Part shown: in pieces, positions 31,212-58,876 of the stretch
How positions within the stretch are numbered: the stretch's first letter is position 1
How the letters are laid out: each line of letters starts with the position of its first letter
From: Candidatus Latescibacterota bacterium
GTDB lineage: Bacteria > Latescibacterota > UBA2968
DNA length: 64,000 nucleotides
NCBI GenBank assembly: GCA_965116885.1
Contig: OZ220741.1
Span: forward strand, 1,248,001 to 1,312,000
Direction of reading: 5' to 3'
Program-made: the position numbers and the translations under genes
Notes under the pieces: model-generated
What the model was told of the DNA's origin: nothing
The model's database searches: none
What the model saw: only the letters and a program-made list of their open reading frames with translations

Positions 31212-32296
31212 TGTATGTCTCCTCACTTAAACTCACCAATTTTCGAAACTTTGAGCATGCTGAATTTACATTTGATCAGGCAAAAACGGCAATTTGGGCA
31301 GATAATGCCCGCGGGAAATCAAATGTTTTGGAAGCGTTGTACTTTTTGGCACTGGCCAAATCGGGCCGAGGTGCCAGAGATCGGGACGTGCTCAAATGGG
31401 GTGCTAACTATTTCGTGATCGACGCCCAGATAGAGCGCGAAGATCGTTCCTTTCCCATTCGCATTGCCTACGATCCCCTCGTCGGCAAGAAACAAGCCTC
31501 TCTTGCAGAGACATCTCTTCCCCGCCTTTCAGACCTTATTGGCGCATTCAACGCTGTTTTATTTTCCCCCGAAGATGTAGATCTCGTATTGCGGGAACCG
31601 GCTCAGCGCCGCCGTATTTTAGATATTCTCGTTTCGCAATCAAACGCATCCTATTTAGCTGATCTGGAAGGGTATCAGCGCGTTTTGGCGCAGCGCAATC
31701 GGTTGTTAAAAGACCGCCGTTCAGCATTATTATCACATCCCGAACAAGTTAAACCGTGGAATGAGCAATTGTCCAATTTGGGTGCTCGCATTATATCTCG
31801 CCGTCTCGAAGCACTGAATGATATACAACATCTTCTATCTGAATATTATCGGGCCATCGCGCCCACACCCGAAAAAATGAAAGCGAGTTATCGCAGTCCC
31901 ATATCCATGGAAACGCGCGATCAGGGCAGGGAAATACTCTTCGAAGCACTGACGACCCGATTGCCACAAGAAGTCGAATTGCGATATACACTTACGGGAC
32001 CACACCGCGACAATTTGATTTTTACACTTGATGACAAGGCTGTACATCAATTCGCGTCCCAGGGCCAACTCAAAACCGTTCTCCTTTCCTGGAAACTGGC
32101 CGAAGCAACATTTTTAGAGCAACAAACCGGGTGGCGCCCTGTTTTGCTGATGGACGATGTGTTTTCAGAACTCGATCCCAATCGGGCAAAAGCTGTATTG
32201 AACCTGATCCCCGATTTTGGGCAGGTGGTCGTAACCTCAGCACGCGATCCGGATTTGGATTTTGAAGCCCAGGGGTTTCGGCTGTTGAAATTGTGA
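31211..32296 (+). CDS. recF: DNA replication/repair protein RecF
   Basis: NFRN, NARGKSN, GPHRD, ASQGQ, LMDDVFSELD. Confidence 0.95.
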   Translation: MYVSSLKLTNFRNFEHAEFTFDQAKTAIWADNARGKSNVLEALYFLALAKSGRGARDRDVLKWGANYFVIDAQIEREDRSFPIRIAYDPLVGKKQASLAETSLPRLSDLIGAFNAVLFSPEDVDLVLREPAQRRRILDILVSQSNASYLADLEGYQRVLAQRNRLLKDRRSALLSHPEQVKPWNEQLSNLGARIISRRLEALNDIQHLLSEYYRAIAPTPEKMKASYRSPISMETRDQGREILFEALTTRLPQEVELRYTLTGPHRDNLIFTLDDKAVHQFASQGQLKTVLLSWKLAEATFLEQQTGWRPVLLMDDVFSELDPNRAKAVLNLIPDFGQVVVTSARDPDLDFEAQGFRLLKL

Positions 32297-50122: not shown

Positions 50123-51505
50123 TTAACTTACGATATGATCTTGTAGTTCACTGACAAGATGTTCAAATTCTGGATCTGATGATATTTTGTTCTCGACGCT
50201 CCGACAAGCGTGAATAACTGTGCTGTGATCCCGATTTCCAAATTGTACACCAATGGTTTTAAGTGGAGCACCTGTAAGAGATTTGCTCAAATACATGCTC
50301 ACATGCCGGGCTGTTGCCACATCTTGCTTTCGAGTCGCACCAATCAGTTTATCTAAAGGTATTTCAAAAAAGTGAGCCGCAGCTTTTTGAATGCTCTCAA
50401 TAGTAACAGTTGGTTTGGTCTTTTGCGGCGGGCTTAGAAGAGTCTTTCGCGCTGTTTCAATCGTAAGTGGATAGCGTTGTAATTTAGTAAAGGCCACCAG
50501 GCGTTTTAATGCACCTTCAAGCTCGCGGATGTTGGTATGGATCTGTTCAGCTAAGAAACTGGCAATTTCGTGAGACAATGAAATACCCATTTCTTCTGCT
50601 TTCCGCATTAAAATTGCCACGCGCGTGGAAAGGTCCGGTGCTTCAATATTTGTAACCAGACCCCATTGAAATCGAGAAATCAACCGATCTTCAAACCCTT
50701 TGAGATGAGATGGCGGGCGATCGGAACTGATGATGATCTGTTTATCCGCTTGAAATAGGGCATTAAATGTATGGATAAACTCTCTTTGGCAACCTTCGGT
50801 TTTCACATAATACTGGATGTCATCAACCAGCAACACATCCGCCTGACGATAGATTTGATAGAAATTAGAGATTGTTCCGCGATTGACTCCTTCTAAATAG
50901 TCCGTGAGAAACTGTTGTGCAGTAACATAAACCACCCGTTGAGCTGTCCCCATTTCGATACAGTATGCACCAATAGCCTGTAGCAGGTGGGTTTTTCCCA
51001 ATCCAACACCGCTATAAAGGACAAGGGGATTAAAAGCTGTTTGTCCAGGCGACTCTGCTGTGGCTTTTGCAGCGGAAAACGACACTTCATTGCTTTCGCC
51101 AACAACAAAATTGTCAAACCGATACCGTGGGTTGAGTGGAAATACGGGTTGGACAGGTCCAGGCTGAAGAGAAGGTCCAGCAGATACAGGATCAAGAGAT
51201 GTTTCCTCCATGAATTCGGGACCCTGTGTCACGGGAAGTGCCATTTGTTGATGAGTATCACCAACGGCAAAACTTATGCGTGGATTCCAGGTAAAAACTT
51301 CCTGGATGGTCGTTTTGATCAACCCGATATAATTTTGTTCTAACCAATCGGCATAAATTCTCTCGGGCACCACCAGAATAGCTTCTTCGGAGGTAAATTG
51401 CCGCGCCGTAATTGGAGCGAACCAGGTTTCAAAACTTTGAACCTGTATTTTTTCCTGGATGGCGTGGAGACACCGGTTCCATAAGTTAGAAGAGCGTTCA
51501 TCCAT
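50123..51505 (-). CDS. dnaA: Chromosomal replication initiator DnaA
   Basis: LNPRYRFDNFVVG, FNPL, GLGKTHL, VDDIQ, NIRELEGAL, RDHSTVIHA. Confidence 0.97.
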   Translation of the reverse strand: MDERSSNLWNRCLHAIQEKIQVQSFETWFAPITARQFTSEEAILVVPERIYADWLEQNYIGLIKTTIQEVFTWNPRISFAVGDTHQQMALPVTQGPEFMEETSLDPVSAGPSLQPGPVQPVFPLNPRYRFDNFVVGESNEVSFSAAKATAESPGQTAFNPLVLYSGVGLGKTHLLQAIGAYCIEMGTAQRVVYVTAQQFLTDYLEGVNRGTISNFYQIYRQADVLLVDDIQYYVKTEGCQREFIHTFNALFQADKQIIISSDRPPSHLKGFEDRLISRFQWGLVTNIEAPDLSTRVAILMRKAEEMGISLSHEIASFLAEQIHTNIRELEGALKRLVAFTKLQRYPLTIETARKTLLSPPQKTKPTVTIESIQKAAAHFFEIPLDKLIGATRKQDVATARHVSMYLSKSLTGAPLKTIGVQFGNRDHSTVIHACRSVENKISSDPEFEHLVSELQDHIVS

Positions 51506-56653: not shown

Positions 56654-57157
56654 TCAGGTTATGCCAGCAAAAGCTTTTGCTGTACTGAGCAATGTTTGCC
56701 ATTGTTGGGGGGGGATCTGGGTGATGATCTTAATGAGTTCGGGAATATCCCGGTCTGTAGTAGAAGCGCTCGCGTTCAGGGCTTCGCACCACTGCTTGTT
56801 CTTGAGTACCTTGCGAATATCAGGGCTCTGGAGTGCTTTGACAATGCCTGCATTGAGGATTTTGGGGTTGGAAATAATCTGGCTGATGACGGGATCTGTT
56901 ATCAGCTTTTCCATCTGGGTAAAAAGTTTGCGGCCTTCGGGTGTTTTCTGTGCGCGTTCTTTGTAAGCTAAAAAAAGAAGCCTTTGAGGGTCGAGATCGA
57001 GTGTTTTTGCAAGATTCGTACACACGTCGTCAGATGGTATGCGTTCGCCTTTTTCTATTTGATAAATATAAGTACCCCACACCCCAATACTTTCCCCCAA
57101 AGCCTGCTGGCTAAATCTTCCATTTCGAGCTTGTTTTATTATTTCACCAAACCTCAT
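56654..57157 (-). CDS. XRE-family HTH transcriptional regulator
   Basis: FGEIIKQAR...SQQALGESIGV...YIYQIEKGERIPS...LAKTL; GGAGG RBS. Confidence 0.85.
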   Translation of the reverse strand: MRFGEIIKQARNGRFSQQALGESIGVWGTYIYQIEKGERIPSDDVCTNLAKTLDLDPQRLLFLAYKERAQKTPEGRKLFTQMEKLITDPVISQIISNPKILNAGIVKALQSPDIRKVLKNKQWCEALNASASTTDRDIPELIKIITQIPPQQWQTLLSTAKAFAGIT

Positions 57158-57276
57158 ACACCCCTCCCAAAAGATCGGTCGCGTTTAAAAATCTGATAAC
57201 ATAATATGAATTGAAAAGAGCAGCGAGGCAAGCTAAATCCTTAAGAAACAGACAGGTTAAATGAAAATATTTACTC

Positions 57277-57305
57277 TTGACAACACAAACTTGACAGTGT
57301 ATATT
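57277..57305 (+). promoter_or_regulatory. sigma70 promoter divergent from the XRE gene
   Basis: TTGACA-17 bp-TATATT, with the same hexamers as the rpmH promoter. Confidence 0.75.
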
Positions 57306-57310
57306 TGGGT

Positions 57311-57547
57311 AGTTGCATTCTGGCACTCCCCATACAGAAAGCAACACACACACACTTGTTTGTGTGTGTGTAGGGCTTAAAGTCCTGGAAAATAAAGAGA
57401 AACGCAATTCAGTTAAATTCTAATTCCCCTGAATTTAAGTCTCTCTTTATTGGGTGGGGAGGGTAAACCGATCTTGCTCTGATTCCCCTTTCTCCCCAGA
57501 TCGTCAGGCTTATCCTCCCCATTTCCCCTTTTTCTCCCCTTTTTTTT
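57311..57547 (+). ncRNA. Putative novel structured RNA (sRNA or attenuating leader)
   Basis: Five consecutive hairpins from the predicted TSS, UCCCC motifs, pyrimidine/U-tract end. Confidence 0.55.
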
Positions 57548-57603
57548 ACATTCAAGTGCGGGTATTCTTTCGTACTCCATCTGTCTTTTTTAGGAATTCG
57601 CCC

Positions 57604-57954
57604 ATGGCCCTTGATGCTGGCGAACTCGATCTCATTCGAGAAACCGTTCACAATGCCATTGAGTCTTCGCAAGAAAACTTTGCTCAAATGGTCGCCAGGC
57701 AGTTTGTGGAAGTTCGATCTGATATCCAAAATGTGCAGGACGCAATTCGCAAAATAAGCACACGTCAGGCTCAGGTCGAGGCCGATATATCAGAAGTCGG
57801 CCACATATGCGAACAGCTAAAGCGCAGGCTTTCGATCATACACGATGGCATGGGTACTGCTGATCGGCTGTTGCACGAGCGTGAAGTTTCACTCAGATTG
57901 GATCATCTCGAACGCGAGTTGGCAGAATTGCGGAGCCGTTTGCCCTCTGTTTGA
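57604..57954 (+). CDS. Small coiled-coil hypothetical protein
   Basis: ATG after TAGGA; heptad pattern (LRLDHLERELAELRSRL). Confidence 0.65.
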   Translation: MALDAGELDLIRETVHNAIESSQENFAQMVARQFVEVRSDIQNVQDAIRKISTRQAQVEADISEVGHICEQLKRRLSIIHDGMGTADRLLHEREVSLRLDHLERELAELRSRLPSV

Positions 57955-58015
57955 TTTCCCTCCCCCAATATCCAGGTCCCTATAAGCGTAGTGTCCCCTG
58001 TAATTTTGGGATAGC

Positions 58016-58876
58016 TCAATCTGAAACAACCGGATTTTCGAGTCGCCCCAGTCCATCAATTTCACATATTACATGGTCGCCGTGTTTGAGCCAGAGTTGT
58101 GGCTCACGTCCCATACCCACACCGGGAGGTGTGCCGGTAAAAATCAAATCTCCGGGGGCAAGTGTGAATACATGTGTGAGATAAGCAATGAGTTTGGGGA
58201 CGCCGAAGATCAGTTGAGATGTATTGGAATCCTGTACTGTTTCGCCATTGAGAATACAGCGAATGCCCAGGTTATGAGGATCGGGCACATCGTCTGTTGT
58301 GACCAGGTCAGGTCCTATTGGAGCAAATGTGTCAAAAGTTTTGCCCATCATCCATTGTGCACCCGGTTTTTCAAGCTGGTAATCACGAGCACTCACGTCG
58401 TGTCCAACCATGTAGCCTGCAACGTGGTTGAGGGCATCTTCTTCAGAGATATTGCGACCGCGTTTGCCAATAACGACAACAAGCTCGACTTCGTAGTCAA
58501 CCTGGGAACTCGCGCTGGGAGCCACGATATTCTCATCTGGGCCGATGATGGATGACGCATATTTGGAAAAGACAATGGGTTCGTCGGGAATGGGCATACC
58601 GCTCTCGGCGGCATGGTCGGCGTAGTTGAGACCTATGCAAATAATTTTTTCTGGATTGTCGATGGGAGCATGAATGCTGACACCTGTTTCAGAAATGGCA
58701 TGGTCTCCTCTATCAATCACTGTCCTGGCTCTGGAAATGGCGTTATCACCTGCTTCGAGAAATTCTCTCATGGTGGAGGGAATCGAAGGATCGGCAGCAC
58801 TGAAGTCAATGATCGAATCGCCTGATCGGGCACCGAGCCGACGCAGTCCCCGGTGCGAAAATGTCACAAGTCGCAT
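58016..58876 (-). CDS. Fumarylacetoacetate hydrolase family protein
   Basis: KIICIGLNY..H, DYEVEL, DVSARD, GKTFDTF, TGTPPGVG. Confidence 0.92.
   Translation of the reverse strand: MRLVTFSHRGLRRLGARSGDSIIDFSAADPSIPSTMREFLEAGDNAISRARTVIDRGDHAISETGVSIHAPIDNPEKIICIGLNYADHAAESGMPIPDEPIVFSKYASSIIGPDENIVAPSASSQVDYEVELVVVIGKRGRNISEEDALNHVAGYMVGHDVSARDYQLEKPGAQWMMGKTFDTFAPIGPDLVTTDDVPDPHNLGIRCILNGETVQDSNTSQLIFGVPKLIAYLTHVFTLAPGDLIFTGTPPGVGMGREPQLWLKHGDHVICEIDGLGRLENPVVSD

Follow-up and report, generated by a model that had tools for sequence, protein, structure and literature searches.

A new conserved RNA gene of about 215-240 nt with five hairpins in sponge-associated Candidatus Latescibacterota

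Results

The locus and the parts of the RNA gene

We analyzed a 64-kb stretch of a Candidatus Latescibacterota genome (contig OZ220741.1, positions 1,248,001 to 1,312,000; hereafter the window, numbered from its first letter), and identified within it a new conserved RNA gene, about 215-240 nucleotides (nt) long and with five hairpins, in these sponge-associated bacteria. The RNA runs on the plus strand from window position 57311 to about 57525-57548, and the evidence presented below shows or strongly supports that it is single-copy, vertically inherited and served by its own strong, conserved sigma-70-type promoter, and that its probable 3′ end is formed by hairpin 5, whose long GC-rich stem precedes a tail rich in U and C. 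The locus reads yidC, mnmE, rsmG, a terminator, a gene for an XRE-family protein (minus strand), the RNA, an open reading frame (ORF) of 116 amino acids (aa), and a gene for an FAH-family hydrolase (minus strand), an order that is maintained even in a second family. The parts of the RNA gene are as follows:

57277..57305, plus strand: sigma-70-type promoter, with the -35 element TTGACA (57277-57282), a 17-nt spacer and the -10 element TATATT (57300-57305); 11 of 12 positions match in a promoter scan
57311..57345, plus strand: predicted 5′ end (about 57311, placed from the promoter) and hairpin 1, with a 12-nt loop containing CUCCCCA (57326-57332)
57346..57371, plus strand: hairpin 2, with (AC)n / (GU)n arms and a UUGUUU loop; a palindrome as DNA
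57372..57386, plus strand: hairpin 3, a short stem with a UAAAG-type loop
57391..57451, plus strand: hairpin 4, with a nearly invariant lower stem (AUAAAGAGA / UCUCUUUAU) and a variable upper stem and loop
57455..57521, plus strand: hairpin 5, terminator-like, with a G-rich 5′ arm (UGGGGAGG) that is paired to a C-rich 3′ arm (CCUCCCCA)
57522..57548, plus strand: pyrimidine-rich tail ending in eight U, the probable 3′ end region, which varies between genomes

A structured RNA had been proposed at this place by a first-pass annotation, and that proposal is upheld by covariation, by conservation of the promoter, by occurrence in RNA libraries and by the lack of any Rfam match. The promoter that the annotation read as TTGACA-17-TATATT is present where it had been placed, and all five stems that it described (57312-57345, 57346-57371, 57372-57386, 57391-57451 and 57455-57521) were reproduced when positions 57311-57550 were folded as a single sequence. 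The minimum free energy of the whole RNA is -81.1 kcal/mol, against a mean of -49.9 kcal/mol (standard deviation 4.3) for 200 dinucleotide shuffles, none of which equaled it (z = -7.2). The reverse strand folds nearly as stably (z = -6.7), so that the strand is not settled by folding alone.

The sequence UCCCC occurs seven times within 238 nt (at 57327, 57425, 57484, 57493, 57516, 57524 and 57535), which agrees with the original count, where 0.34 occurrences are expected from composition; none of 5000 shuffles gave seven (maximum 3), and no other 238-nt stretch of the window attains this number. The motifs had been described as lying mostly in loops or in the tail, and this holds for most of them but not for the one at 57516, which is base-paired in the 3′ arm of hairpin 5. 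An ATG had been expected about 290 nt after the predicted start, and that of the 116-aa ORF is found at 57604, 293 nt downstream. Two small reading frames that overlap the RNA were considered and rejected: neither 57313-57423 nor 57454-57954 is conserved, and the second, a GTG-started 166-aa in-frame extension of the 116-aa ORF across hairpin 5 and the tail, is non-coding, because close relatives show single-base indels in the tail.

The stems covary and the loops are conserved

Covariation was measured independently on a MAFFT alignment of 23 sequences, with the single-sequence fold taken as the structure to be scored. Of the 1464 cells in this alignment, 92.7% pair, and compensatory changes are seen in 23 of the 64 pairs, a level that none of 500 shuffles attained. 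Pairing falls to 31-49% when the 3′ partners are displaced by 1-3 columns. When 28 sequences were aligned with the covariance model described below, 91.4% of 1777 cells paired and 27 of 64 pairs were compensatory (again 0 of 500 shuffles as high), a figure that leans towards structure because the alignment was fitted to the model. This covariation is strong enough to found a new Rfam family.

The alignments showed that the stems vary in a compensatory manner, and that the loops, the promoter and the arms of hairpin 5 are nearly invariant. Mean pairwise identity within the genus is 0.89 for the promoter and 0.87 for the RNA core, and falls to 0.74 in the upstream DNA and to 0.66 in the tail and the spacer to the next gene. 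The sequence of the promoter spacer is conserved likewise, and a promoter pattern matched upstream of the RNA at all 28 genome loci and in 4 of 5 members from metagenomes.

Examination of each hairpin in the 28-sequence alignment demonstrated where these changes fall. The helix of hairpin 1 has changes on both sides in 10 of 10 pairs, with 93.9% of cells paired, and the heptamer CUCCCCA in its loop is invariant in 28 of 28 sequences. Compensatory changes occur in 3 of the 10 pairs of hairpin 2, the inner pairs of which do not vary; as DNA, this hairpin is a perfect palindrome found once in the whole genome. Hairpin 3 has changes on both sides in 3 of 6 pairs. The two helices of hairpin 4 (helices 4 and 5) are 94.6% and 92.6% paired, the upper helix is absent from one genome (G152) and is therefore dispensable, and the UCCCC of loop 4 (57425) is not conserved and varies even inside the genus. 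In hairpin 5, 97.9% of cells pair in helix 6 and 93.6% in helix 7, compensatory changes occur in 4 of 14 and 3 of 5 pairs, respectively, both arms are nearly invariant, and the conserved 25-nt loop (57473-57498) contains two C4 motifs. The two UCCCC motifs of the tail are retained in only part of the genus. The C-rich repertoire first described thus stands in the loops but is smaller than seven, since order-wide conservation extends to only four UCCCC motifs, of which one lies in loop 1, two lie in loop 5 and the last is paired within the 3′ arm of hairpin 5.

The RNA is confined to one order of the phylum

A BLAST search with the intergenic region found it in 20 of the 20 other genomes of the genus, at 75-98% identity, and in two more genera, one from the same family and the other from a second family. 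The covariance model, built from the 23-sequence alignment, was run on 151 genomes from across the phylum and detected a single copy in each of 26 of them, and no match came from 102 genomes belonging to 12 other families. The element occurs once in its own 5.56-Mb genome. Across the order, the model found a single copy in 28 of 53 genomes, which represent 5 of 11 genera: g1 (21 of 21 genomes, that of the window included), g9 (3 of 3), g5 (1 of 1), g8 (2 of 2) and g47 (1 of 1). No match was obtained in the genomes of g6 (15), g2 (2), g3 (3), g4 (1), g7 (2) and g48 (2), with the strict filters that such large searches use and that weak copies may escape. A diverged copy in genus g6 was sought with the filters off and was rejected, as only hairpin-sized fragments (E = 0.003-0.8) were recovered near an XRE-like gene. 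An exact-pattern scan of JGI metagenomes returned 12 matches: 5 full-length members and 7 sequences that fit the pattern by chance only.

Strand, ends and expression

The plus strand is indicated as that of the RNA by the promoter at 28 of 28 loci, by a pyrimidine/U-rich tail after hairpin 5 at every locus, and by an excess of G-U over A-C cells in the helices (100 versus 51). The lower stem of hairpin 5 is strongly G-C, and in relatives U-runs follow directly on its 3′ side; the U-tract is interrupted by C in the genus of the window, and is cleaner in G024 and in g9. Termination at the tail is probably leaky.

Parts of the stretch were found in RNA libraries in 17 rows from sponge, marine and coral metatranscriptomes, mostly sponge metagenomes. 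The RNA itself was covered by contigs in 4 of the 4 runs mapped, which come from four studies of sponge or marine metatranscriptomes, and long contigs are 98-99.6% identical to the window (for example, record 5 of run X1, with 6 differences in 1498 nt), so that this organism or a close relative was present. Short contigs confined to the RNA have a word depth of 455.7 (run X10, 57331-57507) and of 810-1496 (run X7), compared with 4.7-47 for the XRE gene and 10.6-129 for the downstream ORF; contig depth is a poor measure of abundance, and contigs reveal neither strand nor ends, and we take these values as a weak hint that the RNA is highly abundant and among the more abundant transcripts of its neighborhood. 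Summed contig depth drops past about 57520 in two of the RNA studies, which is a weak hint of an end there, and contigs that bridge the RNA and the ORF (57390-57948 in run X5, 57478-58722 in run X10) hint, again weakly, at partial read-through into the ORF. The bin that holds the promoter (57198-57304) is covered in 1 of 4 runs, and the lack of cover in the other three proves nothing.

Comparison with known RNAs

An Rfam search, in which the first-pass annotation had expected no hit, gave none: across the whole window, every family stayed below its gathering score. With a permissive cut-off (E up to 10), positions 57100-57700 gave chance-level matches only, with RsaE not among them, and a permissive scan (E up to 1) of five diverse members returned 17 matches, none of which overlaps the RNA and none of which is RsaE. 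The nearest bacterial match, and the only family of C-rich bacterial small RNAs (sRNAs) to appear over the RNA in a permissive scan, was LhrC (RF00616), and membership was rejected, as its score of 17.6 bits at 57389-57529 compares with a gathering score of 110 and lies at chance level (E = 6). 6S RNA (RF00013) is excluded by the five separate hairpins, which have no closing stem, and by the narrow distribution; a range limited to 5 of the 11 genera in a single order also speaks against a housekeeping role. No 6S RNA was found anywhere in the genome with RF00013, a search of limited reach, given that the 6S control was positive in only 5 of 14 reference genomes.

The closest likenesses are to C-rich sRNAs of Firmicutes. 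RsaE and RoxS are about 100 nt long. Both have four C-rich regions that pair with Shine-Dalgarno (SD) sequences and block initiation, and Hfq is not needed (PMC4409812). LhrC has three redundant UCCC sites, in a loop, a single strand and the terminator loop, that bind a G-rich site upstream of the start codon, with Hfq dispensable (PMC4132741), and strong G-C seeds are described for RoxS/RsaE and for LhrC (PMC4409812 and PMC4132741). On these descriptions, the RNA identified here resembles RsaE and RoxS in two respects. First, they have unpaired C-rich regions with one more in the terminator, and here three conserved unpaired C4 motifs are joined by one in a terminator arm; second, they act independently of Hfq, and no Hfq was found in the genome studied here. 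It differs from them in showing no sequence or structure homology in the Rfam scans, in its length of about 215-240 nt and its five hairpins, in belonging to another phylum, and in being tied to an XRE gene and a coiled-coil ORF. It differs from LhrC, which is 111-114 nt long and multicopy, in being single-copy.

With CsrB/RsmZ the RNA shares a short motif on successive hairpin loops and an apparent abundance. The motif there is GGA, whereas here it is UCCCC on the transcribed strand; GGGGA loop motifs would exist only on the opposite strand, and the promoter, the tail and the excess of G-U cells all speak against that strand. Conservation is limited to a few of the motifs, and a search for CsrA (PF02599) in this genome (98.4% complete) found none, with control genomes positive.

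Neighboring genes

Two genes flank the RNA:

56654..57157, minus strand: gene for a 167-aa XRE-family helix-turn-helix (HTH) protein (Pfam HTH_3, E = 5e-09), with an all-helical C-terminal part of no known family
57604..57954, plus strand: 116-aa coiled-coil ORF of no known family

The structure model of the XRE-family protein has a pLDDT of about 90 in the HTH part and of 53-66 in the C-terminal part. Its gene adjoins the RNA in 27 of 28 loci, and lies about 1.9 kb away in the remaining genome, G016. There, the roughly 1.9 kb between the XRE gene and the RNA promoter (chromosome 4702917-4704818; L020, L038, L067) is an insertion, because pieces of the usual intergenic sequence flank it on either side. 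In 5 genomes without the RNA, neither a full-length orthologue of the XRE gene nor the coiled-coil ORF was found, and in two genomes of g6 the HTH part heads a frame of 633-664 aa beside the FAH-family hydrolase gene.

Divergent pairs of a regulator gene and an sRNA gene are represented by OxyR-OxyS, GcvA-GcvB and SgrR-SgrS. The locus studied here resembles them in its back-to-back promoters, about 120 bp apart, and differs in that the regulator is an XRE-family HTH protein with an uncharacterized helical C-terminal part, of which the control over the RNA is our reading of the arrangement. The 11-mer ACACAMACTTG has four plus-strand copies in the genome, two of which lie at this locus, 65 bp apart, in the promoter spacer (57283-57293) and in hairpin 2 (57348-57358), and these two may be paired binding sites of the XRE protein. 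The palindrome of hairpin 2 is a candidate operator for the same protein, which would explain the unvarying inner pairs of helix 2.

Similar palindromes are found upstream of the XRE-like gene in two genomes that lack the RNA. In genus g6, a hairpin-2-like ACACAC...GTGTGT palindrome is present near the XRE-like gene at L050 (1412-1437) and at L051 (757-780), and at L051 a G-rich/C-rich hairpin-like stretch beside it may be a remnant or a different RNA. In G025 such a palindrome lies 60-85 bp upstream of an XRE-like gene, and another was seen in G027.

The coiled-coil ORF has no Pfam or NCBIfam match above the cut-off, and its neighbors in the Atlas are unnamed coiled-coil clusters. Of the 28 loci, 26 have it downstream of the RNA, and it was not found anywhere in the other two genomes, G018 (98% complete, single contig), where both the ORF and the FAH-family gene are deleted, and G024 (89% complete). 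The RNA structure is intact in both, which indicates that the RNA is not merely a leader of the ORF. In G010 about 49 nt separate hairpin 5 from the ATG of the ORF, and this short spacer, together with the bridging contigs, makes read-through from the RNA promoter the likeliest route of its expression; the ORF is thus probably expressed in this way.

The first-pass annotation placed the RNA near oriC, which is a fair description, as the cumulative GC-skew minimum of the genome lies at window position 32128 and dnaA at about 50651-51136 (minus strand). Window positions 1-30000 form a stretch of distinct composition, in which G+C is raised (0.53-0.58), GC skew is strongly negative (down to -0.32) and AT skew is positive (up to 0.24); this stretch terminates close to the skew minimum.

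Discussion

Our analysis adds a new RNA family, which has the character of a C-rich-loop regulatory sRNA beside a divergent regulator gene, and which introduces no new principle unless one of the decoy or protein-sponge readings discussed below is true. How the RNA acts can be proposed from its conserved loops and covarying stems. We hold at about an even chance that it blocks translation, independently of Hfq, through pairing of its C-rich loops with ribosome-binding sites (RBSs), and that it doubles as the leader of the downstream ORF. On this proposal, the invariant unpaired loop 1 (CUCCCCA) and loop 5 (UUCCCCUUUCUCCCC) would pair with the G-rich SD regions of a limited set of mRNAs, and this pairing would block initiation of translation without Hfq, as do RoxS, RsaE and LhrC of Firmicutes, with the further conserved copy of the motif placed in the terminator stem, as in those three RNAs. 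The divergently encoded XRE-family protein would probably control the RNA promoter, and a minority of transcripts would pass hairpin 5 and express the 116-aa coiled-coil protein, so that the RNA would serve as its leader as well. A search for Hfq (PF17209) in the genome of the window (G000; 98.4% complete, single contig) found none, with control genomes positive. The 3′ end of the 16S rRNA of this genome is GGAUCACCUCCUUUCUA, and the core of loop 5, UCCCCUUUCU, is identical to CCUCCUUUCU at 8 of 10 positions, by which loop 5 resembles the anti-SD tail of the ribosome itself. The commonest hexamers ahead of the start codons of this genome are AAGGAG, AAAGGA and AGGAGA.

Several results weigh against this proposal. 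In a scan that rests on crude gene calls (4441 genes), RNAduplex was used to pair loop 1, loop 5 and the tail with positions -35 to +12 of each start, and the energies at these 4441 starts were no better than those of reversed seeds or of internal coding windows. For example, loop 5 reached -20 kcal/mol or lower at 240 starts, with 157 for reversed seeds and 242 for internal coding windows. As the distributions equal those of the controls, ranked lists of targets carry no statistical weight. The gene ranked first for loop 5, citrate synthase (-32.6 kcal/mol), keeps its GAGAAAGGGG match only in the main clade of the genus, and distant genomes that bear the RNA mostly have an ordinary GAAAGGAG there. 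No long complementary site was found in the genome, where the search returned only the antisense strand of the RNA itself. Only 9 start regions, against 4 control windows, contain UGGGGAG, the exact complement of the heptamer in loop 1. The full 25 nt of loop 5 are conserved, the part that is not C-rich included, which suits a protein or tertiary contact equally well. A terminator scan made no call at hairpin 5, because its loop exceeds the size limit of the rule, and the U-tract is broken by C. Finally, the ends of the RNA are predicted, and the expression data are assembled contigs, from which ends are unreadable.

In genus g6, which lacks the RNA, citrate synthase has GAAAGGAA, and the comparison between genomes decides neither for nor against this gene as a target. 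The leader of citrate synthase in genus g1 (L079-L094; G000 612019-612090) has a conserved UUCUCCUCCAAA about 25 nt upstream of the GAGAAAGGGG RBS, which could fold back on the SD sequence.

The first-pass annotation had also suggested a feedback loop between the RNA and the XRE gene, on the ground that the RBS of that gene is G-rich and complementary to the UCCCC motifs. The RBS is indeed G-rich in 27 of 27 loci examined, but the loop as it was formulated finds no support, since the pairing ranks only about 200-250 of 4441, and any SD sequence is partly complementary to UCCCC motifs. Across the 27 loci, the predicted energies of the XRE start region fall roughly within the best 5-20% and do not covary with the invariant seeds, and the feedback loop is neither supported nor excluded.

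The RNA may instead be a cis-acting leader or attenuator of the 116-aa coiled-coil gene, with hairpins that sense a signal or factor and with the short RNA as a by-product, a possibility that we consider unlikely on its own. The ORF follows the RNA in nearly all loci, has no obvious separate promoter, stands close behind hairpin 5 in G010 and is joined to the RNA by contigs, and we infer that alternative folds could arise if the several CUCCCCA copies vie for the one UGGGGAG arm of the terminator. A leader or riboswitch would, however, always lie upstream of the same gene and be lost with it, whereas this RNA persists, with its covarying structure intact, in the two genomes in which no such ORF was found (G018 and G024); its own promoter, conserved in all 28 genomes, is as expected of an independent sRNA gene. 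The hairpins are arranged as beads on a string with conserved loops, without the multi-helix junction and conserved core of a riboswitch, and no cis-regulatory family of Rfam matches. The leader role and a role in trans are compatible, and a dual role is likely.

Following the logic of CsrB/RsmZ, the C/U-rich motifs may titrate a KH- or S1-type protein, Rho or the 30S subunit, so that the RNA would act as a sponge for its partner, an explanation to which we assign a rather low probability. It would account for a motif repeated four to seven times over the loops and the tail, for a loop 5 that is conserved in its entirety beyond any plausible seed, and for target scans with no signal above controls, and the apparent abundance in RNA libraries is a weak hint in the same direction; the C-rich, G-poor tail presumably resembles Rho loading sites. 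Against this, no candidate partner is apparent, with CsrA and Hfq not found in the genome, and three unpaired motifs conserved across the order are few for a sponge and typical of RoxS and LhrC.

A bolder variant of this idea is that loop 5, as a copy of the 16S rRNA tail, is a decoy anti-SD sequence that competes with ribosomes, or that captures a C-rich-binding protein, so that the RNA would reset translation globally in these sponge symbionts and be the hub of a conserved, origin-proximal module of XRE protein, RNA and coiled-coil protein, with hairpin 2 doubling as the XRE operator; we regard this as improbable.

A purely DNA-level role, in which the inverted repeats serve as operators of the XRE protein or of other proteins near the origin and the transcript is functionless, is very unlikely: the perfect and unique palindrome of hairpin 2, its counterparts in the RNA-less G025 and in G027, and the two of four genomic ACACAMACTTG copies at the locus would fit it, but compensatory pairs (10 of 10 in helix 1, 27 of 64 in total) mark RNA helices and not protein-bound operators, G-U exceeds A-C, the RNA is found in libraries of four studies, and the conserved loops are not palindromic, so that such operators explain hairpin 2 at most.

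We thus return to translational control by C-rich loops as the proposal to be set in a wider frame. In title and abstract searches of the literature we found no description of a regulatory RNA of Candidatus Latescibacterota, and among the titles listed for sponge metatranscriptomes none concerns RNAs of such a kind. These are uncultured bacteria that are common in marine sponges, and with the covariance model, metagenomes can be annotated for the RNA at once and its expression can be followed in existing sponge RNA data. If the proposed mechanism is true, translational control by C-rich loops without Hfq, in the style of Firmicutes, would have arisen independently in a distant phylum, and the XRE gene and the promoter of the RNA would together offer an entry point to a regulatory circuit of bacteria that are still beyond cultivation.

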